From contig CAWCKW010000001.1 in assembly GCA_963796285.1 (NCBI GenBank), positions 32,001 through 96,000 of the forward strand: 64,000 nucleotides of DNA, written 5' to 3'. The first letter of the stretch is position 1; each line of letters opens with the position of its first letter. A program made the position numbers and the translations under genes. Origin of the DNA: Nitrospirota bacterium (GTDB lineage: Bacteria > Nitrospirota > UBA9217). Under the pieces are notes generated by a model that ran no database searches, had not been told where the DNA came from, and was given only the letters and a program-made list of their open reading frames with translations. Below are positions 9,768 to 63,009 of this stretch, piece after piece.

Positions 9768-10559
9768 TCATGCCTGCTCTTCCGCCTCCCACTCCTTCAG
9801 TTTTCCCGAGATGAACTCGATGATCTGCTGATGCTCTTCGGTACCGCGGTCCTTGATCCAGAGGGGTTTGCCGAAGGCGAAGTGAACCTTCTTCGACGGG
9901 TCGATCTTGCCGTAGTCCTTGAGGAACGTGCCGTTGCCCCAGGCATTGGTCTTGAGCGCGATCGGGACCACCGGCACCCCGGCTTTTTTTGCGAGTTTTA
10001 TCCCGATGGTGTTGAACTGTTCCGGGTCAAAAACCGGCGTCCGGGTGGTCTGGGGGAAGAGGATGATCGACATGCCCGCCTTCAGCCTCTCGGCGCCTCC
10101 CTCGAGCACTGCCTTCAGGTCCTCGCGGGGGTTCGTGCGGCCCACGGTAATGGGATTCCGCGAGCGCATGATGTGCTTGAAGATCGGGTAGTCGACAAGG
10201 CTCTGTTTGACGACAAAGGTCGCGTCTTTGAAGGGGGCTATGATCGTGGGGAGGATAAACGTTTCGAGCGTGCTCATATGATTTGCTATGAACACGCAGG
10301 GGCCTTCGACGGCCTTGAAGGAGTCGGTGCCGGTGATCTCGAACTTCACCCCCGCGGCTTCCAGCGCGCGGAGCGTTGCGAAGCTGTTTTCACACCATTC
10401 GGGCGTGCCGTACGGACCGCGCTTTGCCTGTGCGCTTCCCCGGACAACGATGGAGACGAGGCGGGTGTAAAAGGTGAACGAGGTCAGTGCCCGTGCCATG
10501 AAGGAAATGCGGACGGGACCTGTCCGGTAGGAGCCATTCTCGTACCTGAGCTCTTCCAA
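9768..10559 (-). CDS. 1-acyl-sn-glycerol-3-phosphate acyltransferase (PlsC family)
   Basis: NHMSTLE, FVVKQSL, ILFPQTTR; probable TTG start after AAGGAG. Confidence 0.85.
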   Translation of the reverse strand: MEELRYENGSYRTGPVRISFMARALTSFTFYTRLVSIVVRGSAQAKRGPYGTPEWCENSFATLRALEAAGVKFEITGTDSFKAVEGPCVFIANHMSTLETFILPTIIAPFKDATFVVKQSLVDYPIFKHIMRSRNPITVGRTNPREDLKAVLEGGAERLKAGMSIILFPQTTRTPVFDPEQFNTIGIKLAKKAGVPVVPIALKTNAWGNGTFLKDYGKIDPSKKVHFAFGKPLWIKDRGTEEHQQIIEFISGKLKEWEAEEQA

Positions 10560-10712
10560 ACAACGACTCCTTGCAATCAGGGTGCAGGGATACCTCGTGA
10601 AACGACGCCCAGTATACCATGCGAGGGGCAAAGAGTGAAGCGGGAAAAATACTCGTGTGAGGCAAAAACAAAATACTTGCAATACATCGGCGAAAAAGCG
10701 AAAATACGCACC

Positions 10713-12277
10713 ATGCAAACTCCTTCACTCAGGCGAGAAGTCGCTCAGATGGTCATGCCCCGGCTCGACGGCGCGAAACTCGGTGATCCCCGGTACCTCG
10801 AGCATATCTATGCGCTCATTCAGGAAGGAATCGGCGGTTTCATCCTCTTTGGGGGAACGGTCGAGCATACCCCGCGGCAGCTGCAGGAACTCCAGGCCCT
10901 TGCCGGGATCCCGCTGTTGATCACCTCCGACGTGGAGCGCGGCCTCGGTCAGCAGCTTGCCGGAGGGACGCGCTTCCCCAGCCAGCGCGCCGTTGCGTCG
11001 GCCGTTAACCGCCGCATCGAAAAAAGACGTCGAACTGCTTGACAAGATGCTCGATGCCGTGCGGATCGAGACGCGAGCAGCGGGCATTCATGCCGTCTTC
11101 TCTCCGGTCGTCGACGTGAACAACAATCCCGACAATCCCATCATCTGCACCCGGTCCTTCGGCGATGAACCCGAGATCGTCGAATGGTTCGGTTCGCGGT
11201 ACATCTCACGGCTTCAGAAGTCACGCGGGACGCGGGACAGGCTGGATCTCCTGGCCTGCGCCAAACATTTTCCGGGGCATGGGGACACGGACCAGGACTC
11301 GCATTCCGTTCTGCCTGTGATCCACGCCTCCCGGACTCGGCTGAACCGCGTCGAGCTCCCGCCGTTCCGCGAGGCGGTGAAGGACGGAGTAGGCATGGTC
11401 ATGGCGGCGCACCTGCTCGTGCCGGCACTGGATCCGGAAAAACCTACGACGTTCTCGAAAAAGACGATTACCGCGCTTTTGCGGGAGGGCATGGAATTCG
11501 ACGGGCTGATCGTATCCGATGCCCTTGACATGGGCGCACTCGCACGCCACCTACACACCGGAAGACATCGCCGTCCGTGCCGTGAATGCCGGGATAGATA
11601 TCTTGCTTCACCCGCGTGACGCGAACGTGACCATCGACGCGATCGTGTCCGCCGTGGAGCAGGGCAGGCTGACCAGCCAGCGGATCAGTGAATCCGTCGG
11701 GCGGATCATGATTGCAAAAACGCGCCTGGGCCTGTTCGACACGTCCGCACGGAAGGCCGTCCGGATCGATTATCAGAAACATCGGCGCATTGCCCGGGAT
11801 ATCGGGAAAAAGGCGCTTCGGATTACTTTCGGAGAAAAAAAGTTGTCCCCCCTGCCTCATGACGGCGGAGTGGTATGCTTCATCCTTGATGACGATAACA
11901 ACAGGGAATCGGGAGATGTCTTCGTCCGCGCGATGAGAGAGCGATGCAAGCACCTCCTTGCCGTGGTCCTGACACCGGGCTCGGAAATACCGGAATCCCT
12001 GGTGCTTGACAGTGTCAGGGCCTCGGAGTTTGTGGTCATAGCGGTTTATTCCAGGATCTCCGCTTCGAAAGGGCATTCCGGGCTCGACGACACCCTCCGG
12101 GACATTACCGTTAAAATATTAAAGACCGTCAAGTCGGAAAAGGGGAAATCGATCATGATCTCCTTCGACAGCCCTTATCTTCTCGACCGTTTCAAGGACG
12201 CCGATGTGCGCATCGCGGCCTATGACCGGATGGATGAGATCCAGCAGGCCGCCGCGGAGCTGCTGGCCGGGAAGTAG
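10713..12277 (+). CDS. Glycoside hydrolase family 3 beta-N-acetylhexosaminidase (NagZ-like; two apparent frameshifts)
   Basis: SDVERG, PVVDVN, RSFG, KHFPGHGDTDQDSH, SDALDMGAL over three frames, breaks near 11020 and 11545. Confidence 0.85.
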
Positions 12278-28853: not shown

Positions 28854-29159
28854 ATGGTAAGTTTGACGGACAGTGCTATAGGCAAGTTCAAGGAAACGGT
28901 TGCTAAGCAGGGAACTGCTGGAGACGGCGTCAGGATATTCGTTGTCCCGGGCGGTTGAAGCCCCTCTTTGGCTATGGACATAGCCAAAGCAGCCCTGAAG
29001 GGAGATACGACCCTTGAGTTACAGGGATTGAAGCTGTTTCTCGAAGAGCGCGCCAGCGACATGCTGATGAGCACGATGATCGATTTTCAGGAAGGGCAGG
29101 GTTTTGTGCTTTCGGGCATGCAACCAAGCTCTTGCGGTTCTTCCTGCAGTAGTTGTTGA
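28854..29159 (+). CDS. HesB/IscA-like protein with in-frame UGA (predicted selenocysteine at codon 35)
   Basis: AAGGAGG RBS; MVSLTDSAIGKFK...VRIFVVPGG-TGA(28956)-SPSLAMD...CGSSCSSC; UGA sits at the GGC cysteine of HesB; hairpin follows. Confidence 0.88.
28966..28989 (+). promoter_or_regulatory. Bacterial SECIS-like hairpin
   Basis: Perfect 10-bp stem CTTTGGCTAT-GGAC-ATAGCCAAAG; G-first loop begins 18 nt after the UGA. Confidence 0.75.
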
Positions 29160-31605: not shown

Positions 31606-31998
31606 TTAGTCGTTCTTCTTTTCCCTGCTTTTCTGTTGCAGGGCGCTGAAGATCATATCGAGAACGTTTTCCTGCTGGCCCTCATATTTGTTCAGCACCG
31701 CCAGGCAGCTGCCCATCGGGAAACGGTTGTGCAGATAGTCGGCGTCGTGTCCTGAAAGGATGATGACGCGGTTCTTGCTAACCCCTTTGGAGACGGCGTA
31801 GGAGAGGATCTTCGAGCCGTCCAGTCCGGGCATCTCCAGATCGACCAGCAGGAGATCGAGGTCCTCGGTGATAGAGGCAAGGCATTTGATCGGATCATTG
31901 CAGGTCAGGACAGTAAGACCGGGGTAGCGCTCGGCAACGTACTTTGTAAGCACCTTGAGAAATGTTTCATCATCATCGATCAGTAGCACTTTTCCCAT
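31606..31998 (-). CDS. Single-domain response regulator
   Basis: VLLIDDD, LLLVDLEMPGLDG, IILSG. Confidence 0.85.
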   Translation of the reverse strand: MGKVLLIDDDETFLKVLTKYVAERYPGLTVLTCNDPIKCLASITEDLDLLLVDLEMPGLDGSKILSYAVSKGVSKNRVIILSGHDADYLHNRFPMGSCLAVLNKYEGQQENVLDMIFSALQQKSREKKND

Positions 31999-32234: not shown

Positions 32235-32273
32235 ATGCCGGCGGGTGGGGGGGTGAAGCTATTCCCGCCGGCA
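32235..32273 (-). terminator. Hairpin after ExtKL-like gene
   Basis: ATGCCGGCGGG...CCCGCCGGCAT 11-bp stem. Confidence 0.55.
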
Positions 32274-32285
32274 TGGTGAAGAAGT

Positions 32286-33605
32286 TTATACTCCGCCTTT
32301 TTCGATGCTCACCTTCTTCGTTACCTTCTGCCAGGTGAACTGTCCGCTTTCCTTGGTGCCGAAGGGCAGGTACATAAGCTCCACGTCCACCGTCATATCG
32401 TAATCAAGAATCGTGCGTACGACCTTGTCCCCTTGTTTCACCTCTTCAACGGGGAATAATATATCAAAGCTCTCGATCACAGGTTTGTTCGGCGGCAGAC
32501 TGCTGTCGCGCAGGATGCCGCTCTTTTCATAGGGTCCGCGGCCCATCTTATCGCCGCGGCCGAGCTGCTGGGGAATGGGCATGTAAATCTTCGACTGCTT
32601 GAACAACTCCTTGCCTTTACTGTCTCTCGCGGTCACTTCCAGGACCAGCCGGTTGGGGGTTGGTCAGCCGTCCGGGATGGAGTGGCCGGCGCGGTTTATC
32701 ATCTCCACCTTTACCAGCGCCTGCGGAACCATCTTCGCGCCGTCCCGCCACTGATAGCCCAGGGTCTCGACCTTGAAATCCACGGCCGCCTTTGCCATGC
32801 CTGGATCGCGGTAGCTCTGCATATTGTGGCCGAGCTTGCTCTTTTTCATGTGGCATTCCTGGCATTTTTCCTGCCCGCCTTCGGCTCGGTACGCCCAGAG
32901 ATAGCTGCCGTAAAGCGTGGCGCATTGCGAGGGGTTTTCAAGCTCCAGGTTCGGACCCAGGCCGTGGCACTGCCCGCAGAGGATCGATTCGTCCATGATC
33001 GGGCTCTTCTTCATCTTCGGATGAGTTGCATCGGCATGCATGCCGTCCCTGAAACCGTAGACCGTGTCTTTTTCCGGGAACCCGTCCACCCACTTGTGCG
33101 TGATGGCGTTCCGCTGATGGCAGATGAGGCAATTGATGTTCACCTTCGAAAGTTTGGCAACGGCCTTATCGCGCGCATCATCGCTTGTCTTGGGATCGGT
33201 GTAGATATAGGCGTACCTGACGATCTCTTTGGCAACGTCGTCCGTTGCCTCGGCAAGCTGTGGCAAATGGCACTTGGCGCAGATCATGAGGTGCTTCACT
33301 TGCACATCTTCCGGCTTCTTCACGCCGGAGTACTGCCAGCTGGTAAGGCCCACGGCCACCGTGGTCTTGATGGTTGCCGCGGTCCGGCCGGTCCCGAAGA
33401 TGGACCGAGAGTGGATGGACTGCTCCCACTCGTTGTAGATGCCTTCATGACACCCTTTGCAGCCGGTCGAGTCGTACATCTTTGCGAGCTCGTCGATATT
33501 TGTCGCTTTCTTCGCTTCCGCCGCGCCCGCGTCCCGGCCGAGCGTACCTGTCAGGAGTGGCAGCGCGAGCAGGGTGGAGAGGATAATGCACGTTAATCTT
33601 GTCAT
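32286..33605 (-). CDS. Five-heme cytochrome c selenoprotein, ExtKL-like (UGA = Sec at codon 314; 439 aa)
   Basis: Signal peptide; CKGCH, CAKCH, CLICH, CGQCH, CQECH; AGHSIPDG-TGA(32666-32664)-PTPNRLVLEVTARD reads in frame into ORF 32286-32636. Confidence 0.88.
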
Positions 33606-34004
33606 GTGCTTATCTCTCTTCTCAGAAGAGTTGGGTGGCTTTGTTTTTTAAGGGAGTATTGTGACAGGAGATGCTGAATGGCAATGGATACATGATGTGA
33701 AGCAGGGGAACTGCTCGACAAAAGTCTGGACGGGTTGATGCTCATTGCCGCAGTATAAGCGGTAGTGCGGGCGATCACTTTCAAGGTTCGACCTCCTGAA
33801 TACGTCGTGATTAGTTGGTTGCAAATCAACTTCTACGCAAAAATGTCCTCGTAGTTATAAGGATTTTGGTTCCGGCACTTCCGGGTCAGGTGTGAAGTAA
33901 CTTCACATCATAAATCTAGTAACATATAGTCTATAAACTATGGCTTTAGTTGTCAAGCGAAATCGCATGTAATCAATTAGTTACAAAATGATATGTTTTG
34001 CAAG

Positions 34005-35240
34005 TTAGTGTTTTTTCAAGATGAGCGCGGCGTTAAACCCGCCGAAGCCGAGGGAGTTGGAGAGAGCGGATTTGATCGTCAGCCGTCTTGCTTGGTTCGG
34101 TACATAGTCGAGGTCGCAATCAGGATCCGGGTGTTCGAGATTGATCGTCGGCGTGATGACGCCCTCTGAAATGGAGAGAGCGGTAATAGCTGCTTCGACC
34201 GCGCCTGCGGCGCCGAGCATGTGTCCAAGCATGGATTTGGATGAGCTTATCGCGATCTTGTCTGCACATTCGCCGAAGGCTTTTTTAATAGCGAGTGTTT
34301 CTATGGTGTCGTTCGATTTTGTTGCTGTGCCGTGTGCGTTAAGATAATCGATCTCTTCCGGCCTCATGTCAGCGTCAGCGATGGCGCCAGACATCGCGCG
34401 TGACGACCCTGCGCCATCCGGATCAGGTCGCGTAAAGTGATATGCATCGGATGACAGGCCGTAGCCCGCAAGTTCCGCGTAAATCCTCGCGCCGCGTTTT
34501 GCCGCACGTCCCCTTTCCTCGAGGACCAGCACCCCGGCGCCTTCCGCGAGCACGAAACCGTCCCGCTGTTTGTCAAAGGGCCTGCTCGCCATTTCCGGCC
34601 CGCTGTTCCGCAGAGATACCGCCTTCGCCTGGCAGAACCCTGCAAGGATGAGCGGCGTGAGCGCTGCTTCCGTACCGCCCGCGATCATGACGTCGGCGTC
34701 GCCGCGCTGGATGATCTTCATGGCTTCGCCCAGGGCGTGCGTGCCTGTTGCGCACGCGGTCGAGACATCGAGGCACGGTCCTTTGGCGCCGAGCTTCATT
34801 GAAATATATCCCGAAGCCATGTTCACGAGCGACAGGGGAGTGAAAAAAGGCGAGACTGCCTTAGGCCCTTTGGCAAGAAGGGTTGCCATGTTCCTCTCTG
34901 TTGTCGTCACCCCGCCGCGTCCGGAACCGACGAGGACACCCATACGAACGGGGTTTGGCGGAAAAACGGCAAGTCCGGCATCTTCTCTTGCCATGAGTGC
35001 GGCGGCGAGGGCATATTGCATGAACGGGTCGGTCCGGTGCACTTCTTTCGCGGTCATGTATCCGAGCGGATCGAACCCTTTGAGTTCTCCGGCGATGCGG
35101 CAGGGGAAGCCGGAGGCGTCGAATCTGGTGATCGTGCGTACACCCGAGAGACCTTTCTTAAGCGATTCCCAGGTCGTCGGGGTGTCATTCCCAAGCGGTG
35201 TGACCATCCCGATTCCTGTTATCACGACACGGACTACCAT
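34005..35240 (-). CDS. fabF: 3-oxoacyl-ACP synthase II
   Basis: RVVITGIG, STACATG, NAHGTAT, KSMLGHMLGAAG, NSLGFGG. Confidence 0.95.
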   Translation of the reverse strand: MVVRVVITGIGMVTPLGNDTPTTWESLKKGLSGVRTITRFDASGFPCRIAGELKGFDPLGYMTAKEVHRTDPFMQYALAAALMAREDAGLAVFPPNPVRMGVLVGSGRGGVTTTERNMATLLAKGPKAVSPFFTPLSLVNMASGYISMKLGAKGPCLDVSTACATGTHALGEAMKIIQRGDADVMIAGGTEAALTPLILAGFCQAKAVSLRNSGPEMASRPFDKQRDGFVLAEGAGVLVLEERGRAAKRGARIYAELAGYGLSSDAYHFTRPDPDGAGSSRAMSGAIADADMRPEEIDYLNAHGTATKSNDTIETLAIKKAFGECADKIAISSSKSMLGHMLGAAGAVEAAITALSISEGVITPTINLEHPDPDCDLDYVPNQARRLTIKSALSNSLGFGGFNAALILKKH

Positions 35241-35296
35241 GGCGCGAAGTATAAGTTTTTTTTTACTATTTGTCAAAAGATGAATTCCGATTCAGT

Positions 35297-61140: not shown

Positions 61141-62487
61141 CTATTTTGCGGTTGTACCGCCATACCGCTCATTGTAGAACTTCTGGATCTTGTCAAGCTG
61201 CTCTTTGGTCATGCCCTTGGTATACCACTCGTGCCTGACATCGGTCTCGAGGTATTGTTTCACGATCTCGTTATAGAGCTCCGGACCGGCAACGTTCTTT
61301 ACCTCGGGCAGGAACTCGGTATAGAAGTTCTTGGCCACATCATAGATACCATGCCACCACGCATAATCGGGGCCGGACATGGCCGCGCCGTGCCTTGCTC
61401 TTCTGCCTTCATGGTGCCACAGCTCCCAGTATATCCAGTCCAGCTTGTCGTCGAAATTCGCCTTTGTAAGCTTGCCCTTGTCCATCAGTTCCTGCCTGAT
61501 CGCGGTCGCGGGTTTTGCGAATTTGTCGTCATACAGATTGACAAGATTATCGAACTGTTTATAGAACCCTTCCACGAAGGGCGTTGAATGGCAGCTGTTA
61601 CAGACGTTCTGCATGGCAGCGCGCTTTTTATCCGCGTTCTCCATCTTCTTCGAAATGGGCGGCCGAAGCGTCCAGCTGATCCGGGCGCCTACGTCATGGG
61701 TCACTGCCTGGGTCGGCGTGGCGCTCATATGGCAGGTGGCGCAGGTGGGGGCGGCGGAATAATCCTGTCCAACGACCCACTTGTCCTTGTGCATGTTCAT
61801 CCGTTCCTTGTTGGCCTCGTAAAGGATCCCGTGCTTTGATTCCTGATATACTTCCATCTGCGGATGGTCAGGGCCGAGATGGCATTTACCGCAGGTCTGG
61901 GGTTCTCGTGCCTGCGCTTTTGAGAAACTGTGGCGCGCATGGCAGGCCGAGCAGGACCCCTTGGAGCCGTCGGGGTTTATTCTGCCGATGCCCGTGTTCG
62001 GCCAGCTATTGGTGTCGAGCTTACCATTTGCCAGGACCTTGACAATACCTCCATGGCACTGCAGACAGCCGACCGCAACGGCCTCCTGTCCACCCACGAC
62101 CTCGCCGAGATAGTTGTCCGCGGAATTGAGGATGTCCCCGGCTTTGGCATGGTGGCTCTCGGTCATCTCCTTTTCTTCCTTAGCGTGGCATTTGCCGCAG
62201 TCCTTGGGAGTGACGAGGATCGCGATCGTATATCCATTGTGCTCCATGGCATCAGGATCGGACTTCTCCGCCTTGTGGCAGGTGTAGCAGTCTACGCCTT
62301 TTGCCGCGTGGGTGCTCAGCTTCCATTCCGTGACAAAGGCTGGTGACTGTGCCTCGTGACAACCTATGCAGGCCTGACCTTCTTTTGATACTTTTAGCTT
62401 TGCCGCTTCGCCCGACCCGGCATGGAACGTCATGACCATGCTGAGCACCACTGATAGAACAATGATCGATACCTGGTTCCTTTTCAT
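61141..62487 (-). CDS. Octaheme cytochrome c, hydroxylamine oxidoreductase (HAO) family
   Basis: Signal peptide; 8 CxxCH; GIGRINPDGSKGSCSACH, CHLGPDHPQ, ESKHG, HHEGRRARHGAAMSGPDYAWWHG. Confidence 0.9.
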   Translation of the reverse strand: MKRNQVSIIVLSVVLSMVMTFHAGSGEAAKLKVSKEGQACIGCHEAQSPAFVTEWKLSTHAAKGVDCYTCHKAEKSDPDAMEHNGYTIAILVTPKDCGKCHAKEEKEMTESHHAKAGDILNSADNYLGEVVGGQEAVAVGCLQCHGGIVKVLANGKLDTNSWPNTGIGRINPDGSKGSCSACHARHSFSKAQAREPQTCGKCHLGPDHPQMEVYQESKHGILYEANKERMNMHKDKWVVGQDYSAAPTCATCHMSATPTQAVTHDVGARISWTLRPPISKKMENADKKRAAMQNVCNSCHSTPFVEGFYKQFDNLVNLYDDKFAKPATAIRQELMDKGKLTKANFDDKLDWIYWELWHHEGRRARHGAAMSGPDYAWWHGIYDVAKNFYTEFLPEVKNVAGPELYNEIVKQYLETDVRHEWYTKGMTKEQLDKIQKFYNERYGGTTAK

Positions 62488-63009
62488 ACATTGACCCTCC
62501 TTTTCCTTGGTTTATCTATTTTGATCAGCCCGGTGGCTTGCTCACTGTTCTCTAAATGACAATACGCTGTAGTGAGGAACCATGTTATAATGTGGTTATT
62601 ATTGTTTCTTTTGCCCGGAGGCTGAATTGGTACGTACCCTATATGAAGGCCCCTCGTTATAGGGTGGCTTGGCTGAAAAATGAATAACAATCGCAATGGG
62701 AACGCACCTTATTGCACAAACGAACAGAAAAGTCATCATACCTCACGCCTCAGTATGTGCAGTGTGTTCCGGTATGCGAAGAATCGTAACAAATCAAGTG
62801 TAGCATAAATTTTTTTATGTTATTTGAAATCACCAGTCAAGCCCTTCTCGAAATGAAGACCTATTTTCTTAGCATAAAACGCATGCCGATGGCTATGATA
62901 TGCATCATAGGTCCTGACCCTGGGCGCCTGATGTGGTTGGACAAGCGTGGATTTTGCCTTGACTTTGAAGTGCTTATGCACTATATTATGCTCCGTAGAG
63001 GAGGTCTGT

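Follow-up and report, generated by a model that had tools for sequence, protein, structure and literature searches.

Two cytochrome ORFs on the minus strand of the window, by which we mean the whole 64,000-nucleotide stretch analysed, lie in the same frame of the ORF listing, one of 313 aa (33605..32664) and one of 116 aa (32636..32286). Translation of 33605..32286 on this strand with TGA read as selenocysteine (Sec, U) gives one product of 439 residues, in which U314, encoded by the TGA at 32666..32664 in the context GHSIPDG-U-PTPNRLV, is the sole recoded codon. A first-pass annotation of this DNA had joined the two ORFs through HSIPDG-TGA-PTPNRLV, and the translation bears this out as a single 439-codon frame with one in-frame TGA. 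The two "split" cytochrome ORFs are one gene that gene callers have cut in two. Its product carries five CxxCH heme-binding motifs, all of which align to the MccSep chain in the PDB, and its N-terminus, MTRLTCIILSTLLALPLLTGTLGRDAGAAEA, resembles a Sec signal peptide as judged by eye. The features of the gene are listed below.

32286..33605, minus strand: mccSep/extKL gene, 439 codons plus stop with one UGA read through (Sec314), by NF040886 and PDB 9wt8/9wt9 (E 7e-185)
32664..32666, minus strand: UGA codon for U314 in the D-G-U-P loop, equivalent to U325 of Geobacter sulfurreducens MccSep, by translation, alignment and TGA conservation
33447..33461, minus strand: heme-binding motif 1, CKGCH, residues 49-53, by translation
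33267..33281, minus strand: heme-binding motif 2, CAKCH, residues 109-113, with H113 equivalent to H122, the proximal ligand of the active-site heme according to the MccSep paper
33117..33131, minus strand: heme-binding motif 3, CLICH, residues 159-163, by translation
32964..32978, minus strand: heme-binding motif 4, CGQCH, residues 210-214, by translation
32850..32864, minus strand: heme-binding motif 5, CQECH, residues 248-252, by translation
32922..32924, minus strand: C228, equivalent by alignment to C239, the distal Cys ligand of heme 2 according to the MccSep paper

Assignment to the MccSep (ExtKL) family

Against NF040886, the NCBIfam equivalog model for the "multiheme c-type cytochrome (seleno)protein ExtKL" (cut-off, 250), the product of read-through reaches 590.9 bits, and the window gene reaches 583.2 bits when the genome is searched in six frames with the same model. 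Pfam recognizes generic cytochrome domains only. In a PDB sequence search, residues 24-437 match the MccSep entries 9wt8, 9wt9 and 9wta-c with an E value of about 1e-184, and the alignment contains two one-residue gaps, confined to the N-terminal part. The earlier description of the gene as an ExtKL-like five-heme cytochrome c selenoprotein, which called for a comparison of the read-through product with ExtKL, agrees with these scores and with the alignment to the crystallised G. sulfurreducens enzyme.

In G. sulfurreducens, MccSep (gsu2937-2936, extKL) is described as a homotetrameric periplasmic polysulfide reductase with five hemes and one Sec per subunit, in which Sec325 acts jointly with the heme-ligating Cys239 (PMC13510729; Sci Adv 2026 12:eaeg2218; preprint 10.1101/2025.11.18.688581). 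According to the same paper, activity was assayed as polysulfide-dependent oxidation of methyl viologen, selenite is a poorer substrate than polysulfide, and deletion of mccSep impairs S0 respiration in Geobacter (PMC13510729). The preprint reports, from mutant phenotypes, that R83 and K372 are needed for function (10.1101/2025.11.18.688581). All five functionally tested residues are kept in the aligned window protein, as R74 (R83), H113 (H122), C228 (C239), U314 (U325) and K361 (K372). Cys240 of the Geobacter enzyme, a position described as non-conserved (PMC13510729), is replaced by Ala. The PDG-U314-P segment aligns with D323-G324-U325-P326, and residues 315-437, beyond the recoded codon, match the Ig-like domain of the crystallised chain gap-free.

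The window protein and G. sulfurreducens MccSep (ExtKL, GSU2937-2936) are thus alike in length, in the five CxxCH motifs, in the D-G-U-P loop, in the Arg and Lys of the substrate channel and in the C-terminal domain. They differ in host, since the relatives of the window genome are labelled Nitrospirota and the Geobacter enzyme belongs to Desulfuromonadia, in the position and strength of the conserved hairpin after the UGA, and in the ext operon, which does not surround the window gene. The window gene is an ordinary, typical member of an already known and crystallised family, one that a 2026 review of prokaryotic selenoproteins includes as ExtKL/NF040886.

The first-pass annotation also placed the gene in a new lineage, a reading for which the published survey gives no support. 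Among its 637 homologs, 394 of them obtained through UGA read-through, the hosts are mainly Desulfobacterota and Nitrospirota, the latter mainly Thermodesulfovibrionia, and a figure contains a Nitrospirota SECIS representative (PMC13510729). The survey already covers the lineage of the window, and in the order to which the genome belongs, sampled as 64 genomes of one family and 19 genera, 45 genomes have a match to NF040886 above the cut-off; at E <= 1e-30, matches occur in 16 of the 19 genera.

The UGA as a selenocysteine codon

Each of the best 120 of 1683 database homologs covers at most 71% of the query, so gene callers evidently ended these homologs at the UGA codon. The nucleotide sequences of relatives were compared at the Sec column. 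In 33 related loci from named metagenome-assembled genomes (MAGs), tblastn with residues 291-345 retrieved 33 copies from 32 loci, L046 being cut before the UGA region and L032 having two copies. A stop stands at the Sec column in all 33 related copies, and with the window included the codon is TGA in 34 of 34. The same holds for 30 of 30 Desulfuromonadia loci, taken from a 101-genome class sample around a Desulfuromonas MAG. In this sample 34 genomes have a match to NF040886 above the cut-off, and 38 of the 39 rows above the cut-off contain one TGA, the exception being an N-terminal fragment. In the order of the window genome, one or two TGA codons occur in 57 of 58 such rows, and the remaining row spans profile positions 15-237 only. 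At the Cys/Sec column, which the annotation had proposed to check in homologs, the orthologous copies examined have TGA.

The genome (3.58 Mb in 13 contigs, 96% complete, 5% contamination) encodes the complete selenocysteine machinery that had been proposed as a check. The selB and selA genes (369.6 and 595.4 bits) lie side by side on contig C12 (140804-144557), and tRNA-Sec is found on the same contig (134660-134754; 64 bits, with the gathering score at 47), together with a second match over the threshold. The selD gene, which has a TGA of its own, is located at position 101902 of C1, about 6 kb past the end of the window.

Contigs of public sequencing runs were compared with the gene. The codon is bridged by a DNA contig from X2, and there is none at 32664-32666 among the differences listed, with 79 more outside this listing. 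RNA-library contigs of X15 and X16 fall on 28 and 18 of 30 gene bins, respectively, which represents presence in RNA libraries and not proof of transcription; gene parts without X16 cover are uninformative. The two X15 contigs were not counted as bridging the UGA, since neither extends for 31 letters to either side of it.

Hairpins downstream of the UGA

Two overlapping hairpins are candidates for the SECIS element.

32630..32647, minus strand: SECIS candidate H1, a U.G pair plus a GGUC/GACC stem with loop CUGGAAGU, -4.8 kcal/mol, by pairing conservation
32639..32652, minus strand: overlapping alternative H2, a CCGG/CUGG stem 11 nt past the UGA with loop CUGGUC, -3.2 kcal/mol, 90.3% of cells paired

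H1 corresponds to the GGTC/GACC hairpin that had been noticed after the UGA. It is indeed present at 32647..32630 with a stability of -4.8 kcal/mol and a stem of only 4-5 bp, and its loop (32642..32635) starts 22 nt past the UGA. In 34 orthologous copies, 31 of them distinct, 94.2% of the cells are paired at H1, and 1 of 500 shuffles scores as high; the covariation score is likewise reached by 1 of 500 shuffles, with one pair changed on both sides, in two cells. These shuffle frequencies are to be read with the caveat that related sequences may beat shuffles without any structure. A hairpin of -1 kcal/mol or better occurs at the position of the H1 loop in 33 of the 34 copies of the non-Desulfuromonadia half of the family, and in the divergent loci L042, L043, L050, L040 and L051 the hairpin at this position reaches 6-7 bp with other letters.

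H2 is retained as an alternative only, since it has no covariation or compensatory change and one of its pairs is broken in 6 of 31 distinct rows. The H2 position is occupied in all 30 Desulfuromonadia loci and in L041 by the dominant hairpin ACCGAC/GUCGGU with loop UGGUUCU (-8.8 to -9.1 kcal/mol). Compared with G. sulfurreducens, the conserved hairpin of the window gene lies about 6 nt farther from the UGA and is weaker (-4.8 versus -9.1 kcal/mol).

Taken whole, the 91-nt region folds no better than its shuffles (z +0.77), and the minimum free energy structure of the segment is a further pairing, which takes in the UGA itself. The RNAalifold structure of a 63-nt alignment (-0.74 kcal/mol) pairs the UGA region with GGU and contains no compensatory pair, and it was not adopted. 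For the SECIS element of this branch we regard H1 as the candidate with the better support, not as a proven one, and two alternative pairings overlap it.

Elsewhere in the window, another in-frame TGA is located at 28956-28958 (frame 28854-29159), and 9 nt after it comes a hairpin of 8 bp whose loop is GGAC.

A solitary gene in a branch of varied contexts

Upstream of the window gene, on the same strand and 400 nt away, lies fabF (35276..34005, 595 bits); farther out, the opposite strand carries two ORFs, of which one contains DUF4912, as well as a gene for a GH57-type branching enzyme and glcD. On the downstream side, the gene at 31998..31606 encodes a response regulator of 130 aa that consists of a receiver only, and it is followed on the other strand by a SufB-like gene and sufC. 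NCBIfam and Pfam annotation reveals no rhodanese, porin or quinol oxidase within about 10 kb of the gene, and the first-pass statement that it stands alone, with no such partner adjacent, is correct. Two signals flank the gene.

33655..33684, minus strand: sigma-70-like promoter match (TTGCCA, 18 nt, AATACT), a consensus match only (9/12), about 50 nt before the ATG
32235..32274, minus strand: terminator-like GC-rich hairpin with an 11-bp stem, then UUUGUAUCU, starting 12 nt past the stop, -22.1 kcal/mol

The terminator-like hairpin has a folding z of -4.84, with 0 of 200 shuffles as stable. A scan for consensus terminators lists none for the gene, because the loop of this hairpin is 18 nt long. 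A sigma-54 promoter pattern has 0 matches with up to two mismatches in the 400 nt upstream, and over the whole window it matches less often than in shuffles. Since the neighbors, the promoter-like match and the strong 3' hairpin all agree, the gene is most simply regarded as its own unit.

Gene contexts in relatives were counted by our own ORF calling and BLAST clustering in 34 loci, the window included. The fabF gene stands directly upstream in 8 of these, the window being one, and a DUF3373 protein (PF11853, 432 bits) stands directly upstream on the same strand in 6, once as a fragment of 162 aa. The DUF3373 family is classified among putative pores of the outer membrane, under TCDB 1.B.62 (PMC4827864). 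The contexts of the remaining loci differ from each other; two Desulfobulbus loci have a gene for a small class III cytochrome 43 nt upstream. FabF was rejected as a partner, being a housekeeping protein found upstream in these 8 of 34 loci, and so was the downstream receiver, which is common to the window and L027 only.

In a quick maximum-likelihood tree of 62 rows, from which L046, L049 and L052 were excluded (best match below 250 residues), the window falls within a 19-row clade (SH-aLRT 100) of MAGs mostly labelled Nitrospirota. The rows nearest to it, L021 and L022, both have fabF upstream, and the contexts in the clade are fabF in 6, DUF3373 in 5 and others in 8. The window gene does stand alone, but contexts in this branch are many and its own is just one of them.

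The contrast is with the ext cluster of Geobacteraceae, extHIJKLMNOPQS (PMC5877670), in which ExtKL is flanked upstream by ExtH (rhodanese), ExtI (porin) and ExtJ and downstream by ExtM, ExtN, Rieske protein, cytochrome b and ExtS. Of the 30 Desulfuromonadia loci, 20 were fetched with flanks; these have the full ext operon, and its parts were confirmed by NCBIfam equivalogs: ExtH (NF040901, 621 bits), ExtI (NF040900, 732 bits), ExtJ (NF040942), ExtM (NF040943), ExtN (NF040967), ExtP (NF040969) and ExtS (NF040971). By type, 24 of the 30 loci have an intact operon with ExtI directly upstream, and 6 have DUF3373 upstream instead. The window gene does not have this flanking pattern, and no ext gene is linked to it.

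Two unrelated putative porins thus recur directly upstream of mccSep across the family, ExtI in 24 of 30 Desulfuromonadia loci and DUF3373 in 6 of these 30 and in 6 of 34 loci of the other branch. The idea that ExtI is itself the DUF3373 protein was rejected, since ExtI matches Porin_O_P and NF040900.

Ext partners elsewhere in the genome

A genome-wide search for ext partners, proposed with the original annotation, was successful in part. An ExtI ortholog is encoded on the small contig C2 (4576-5793; 330.4 bits against a cut-off of 150; tblastn E values of 1e-63 to 1e-66), where its neighbors are Big_2-domain proteins and no cytochromes, and a frameshifted ExtI copy is located at C12:231297-232300. 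Pairs of Rieske protein and cytochrome b are found at C12:130.5-132.1 kb and C3:137.6-138.7 kb. The C12 pair belongs to a cluster with two modules of a tetraheme cytochrome, a 4Fe-4S protein and NrfD, and this cluster also contains a pentaheme, an 11-heme NapC/NirT-like and a c7-type cytochrome and adjoins the tRNA-Sec gene. In total, 39 open frames of the genome have at least two CxxCH motifs.

The other partners were sought with our own Ext profiles, each built from 6-15 Desulfuromonadia proteins, and with tblastn. Neither gave a match to ExtJ or ExtM in the genome, and ExtH, ExtN and ExtS were matched weakly by the profiles (25.5, 20.4 and 36.5 bits) and not by tblastn. No DUF3373 protein was detected in this 96% complete genome by the Pfam model, tblastn or our own profile; the same Pfam search gave matches in two other genomes. 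Compared with the ext cluster, the genome therefore possesses the ExtKL gene, an ExtI ortholog and Rieske/cytochrome b pairs, all of the latter unlinked to ExtKL.

Function, mechanism and alternative readings

We consider, with a probability of roughly 0.88, that the locus holds a single, intact, monocistronic Sec-type MccSep (ExtKL) gene; its genome is most closely related to MAGs that carry the label Nitrospirota. The enzyme had been proposed to be a heme-plus-Sec periplasmic reductase of polysulfide or selenite. The family part of this proposal stands, as the Geobacter ortholog has polysulfide and weaker selenite activity (PMC13510729), and the activity of the window enzyme is predicted by homology. 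Most likely, it is a periplasmic polysulfide reductase that would act less well on selenite, and it may likewise form a tetramer.

The following course of events is suggested by the Geobacter enzyme together with the sequence. UGA-314 would be decoded as selenocysteine by the organism's own SelA, SelB, SelD and tRNA-Sec, with the short downstream hairpin as a possible guide. The pre-protein would be exported through its candidate N-terminal signal peptide, and five c-type hemes would be attached. By homology to the crystallised G. sulfurreducens enzyme, the protein is predicted to fold into an alpha-helical five-heme cap and a C-terminal Ig-like domain, and the latter would bring Sec314 beside heme 2 with its ligands His113 and Cys228. 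Sec may then attack the S-S bond of polysulfide, or selenite, and hand the adduct to the heme-ligating Cys, and electrons arriving through the heme chain would release sulfide.

A catalytic heme with a Cys distal ligand and S-S chemistry are also common to TsdA and SoxAX, His/Cys-ligated heme sulfur enzymes, as the MccSep authors argue. These enzymes differ from MccSep in having no selenocysteine, another fold and the oxidative direction, and the PDB search gave no sequence match between them and the window protein. The molybdopterin polysulfide and sulfur reductases Psr and Sre are described as performing the same overall reaction, from periplasmic polysulfide to sulfide. They are, however, unrelated Mo-bisPGD enzymes with an NrfD-type membrane anchor of their own, and MccSep at this locus has no dedicated anchor gene.

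The electron donor of MccSep is stated by its authors to be unidentified even in Geobacter, and the route of polysulfide into the periplasm to be unclear (PMC13510729). The terms "gene cluster", "operon", "synteny" and "rhodanese" are absent from the main text of the preprint (10.1101/2025.11.18.688581), and the published text does not contain "gene cluster" and has ExtI in the reference list only (PMC13510729). The first-pass annotation had supposed a different electron donor here, which may or may not hold. The window enzyme probably draws its electrons from the general pool of periplasmic cytochromes, and unlinked quinol oxidases of the Rieske/cytochrome b or NrfD type would feed this pool. 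A more tentative idea, which we regard as rather doubtful, is that MccSep in this order has been freed from a dedicated operon, is fed by this pool and receives polysulfide via the unlinked ExtI-type porin, and that the porins upstream of mccSep across the family mark an outer-membrane entry channel. If true, the recurrent upstream porins would represent the entry of polysulfide through the outer membrane, a step that the MccSep authors call unresolved.

It is improbable that a member of this family serves another role here than S0 respiration, namely selenite/tellurite reduction or detoxification, or a step of sulfur disproportionation or of sulfide/polysulfide oxidation in a dsr-bearing organism. 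Such a role would fit the reduction of selenite by the Geobacter enzyme, less efficient as it is (PMC13510729), and the NCBIfam label of the ext genes, "selenite/tellurite reduction operon". It would also fit a dsrA-like gene, split into pieces that score 311 and 237 bits and adjacent to a dsrB-like stretch, the disproportionators among the MccSep host taxa (10.1101/2025.11.18.688581) and the lack of adjacent respiratory partners. However, polysulfide is the better substrate in Geobacter, where the deletion impairs S0 respiration (PMC13510729), and R74 and K361 of the substrate channel are conserved in the window protein.

The reading that the TGA is a true stop or an assembly error, leaving a truncated 313-aa cytochrome and a leftover downstream ORF, agrees with the annotation by gene callers across databases, in which the best 120 of 1683 homologs end at the TGA codon, but it is close to refuted by the TGA, which none of the orthologous copies examined lacks at this column, the gap-free alignment of the following 125 codons to the Ig-like domain of the crystal structure, the complete Sec machinery and the X2 DNA contig that bridges the codon with none there among the differences listed.

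With the locus taken as an intact MccSep gene, its main value lies in annotation, as an intact selenoenzyme gene is filed in databases as pieces, like the best 120 of its 1683 relatives. The gene also marks a lineage of soil, peat and sediment, habitats given by the labels of runs with at least half of the gene's sampled words, as a likely reducer of polysulfide/S0 or a disproportionator. The varied contexts and the two porin families upstream elsewhere could guide a search for the substrate route and the donor of MccSep. Two modest leads emerge: in other genomes porin genes recur upstream of mccSep, and the genome studied here has a Cys-type paralog with a rhodanese.

This paralog (C12:910668-911930) is a 420-aa five-heme protein, 25% identical to the window protein, and its score against NF040886 (134.9 bits) is under the cut-off. 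The residue at its Sec column is Cys (GHIFPEGC), and it keeps the heme-ligand Cys and the equivalent of R74 but not that of K361. Its gene is followed by those of a rhodanese of 190 aa, whose N-terminus resembles a signal peptide, of a histidine kinase and of a sigma-54 response regulator, and 11 database relatives of the paralog were found, one of them labelled Nitrospirales.

The hairpin after the mccSep UGA and the genes upstream

A hairpin following the UGA codon of mccSep is conserved:

Alignment A1, columns 20–45; loci L066–L095 (Desulfuromonadia): post-UGA hairpin of mccSep

In Desulfuromonadia, the hairpin (ACCGAC/GUCGGU, loop UGGUUCU, −9.1 kcal/mol) is located approximately 6 nt nearer the codon and is much stronger than that of the Nitrospirota/Desulfobulbia branch, for which the window's copy gives −4.8 kcal/mol. 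The gene directly 5' of mccSep on the same strand encodes DUF3373, a putative outer-membrane pore, in two phyla:

L023, L028, L030, L034, L036, L044: Nitrospirota-type loci, DUF3373 directly upstream of mccSep, same strand
L071, L078, L081, L088, L094, L095: Desulfuromonadia loci, DUF3373 directly upstream of mccSep, same strand

The same position in other Desulfuromonadia is occupied by ExtI, a porin unrelated to DUF3373. Two Desulfobulbus MAGs encode a small class III cytochrome c on the same strand, 43 nt 5' of mccSep, and this cytochrome is a candidate electron donor in these MAGs:

L047:9494–9928 and L048:9470–9946: small class III cytochrome c gene upstream of mccSep

In one Nitrospirota MAG, mccSep is present as two tandem copies (L032:8106–9305 and 10001–11281), both of which contain the TGA and whose products share 51% and 67% identity with the window's protein.

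ExtI and a Cys-type paralog in the same genome

The window's own assembly (G000) encodes ExtI and a MccSep-like paralog on other contigs:

C2:4576–5793 (L121): ExtI porin ortholog (NF040900, 330.4 bits; cut-off 150)
C12:231297–232300 (L122): second ExtI copy, split by frameshifts
C12:910668–916016 (L054:9669–15016): Cys-type MccSep-like five-heme paralog with its neighbours

The ExtI ortholog is unlinked to mccSep and is adjoined by Big_2-domain genes, and the C12 region around the second copy is mirrored by contig C2. The paralog (420 aa) shares 25% identity with the window's MccSep, scores 134.9 bits against the ExtKL model NF040886, under the cut-off of 250, and has Cys in the Sec column. 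Downstream of the paralog lie genes for a secreted-looking rhodanese, a histidine kinase and a sigma-54 response regulator, and only 11 relatives of the paralog were found in the database.

Other cytochromes, repeated frames and a HesB/IscA-like ORF

C12:123853–134754 (L055): respiratory cluster
Window 61141–62511 (C1:93141–94511), minus strand: 456-aa open frame with eight CxxCH motifs
C8:7855–9228 and C9:7634–9004: other copies of this frame
Window 28854–29159, plus strand: HesB/IscA-like ORF containing an in-frame TGA (28956–28958)

The respiratory cluster comprises two cytochrome/4Fe-4S/NrfD modules, one Rieske/cytochrome b/pentaheme unit, an 11-heme NapC/NirT-like cytochrome and a c7-type cytochrome; a tRNA-Sec gene stands at its end, with selB/selA about 6 kb away. 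Two neighbouring open frames at C3:259140–262483 contain 26 and 16 CxxCH motifs and may represent a single very large multiheme cytochrome.

The assembly contains three copies of the eight-CxxCH frame and likewise three of selD (C1, C8 and C9), and the small contigs C8 and C9 appear to be strain-variant duplicates of the end of C1. A dsrA-like gene lies in two adjoining pieces (C13:68190–70310; 311 and 237 bits, both below the cut-off) beside a further dsr-like stretch with an internal TGA; this region could reflect a frameshift or an assembly error. In the HesB/IscA-like ORF, an 8-bp hairpin with the loop GGAC begins 9 nt past the TGA, and sufC and sufB lie downstream.
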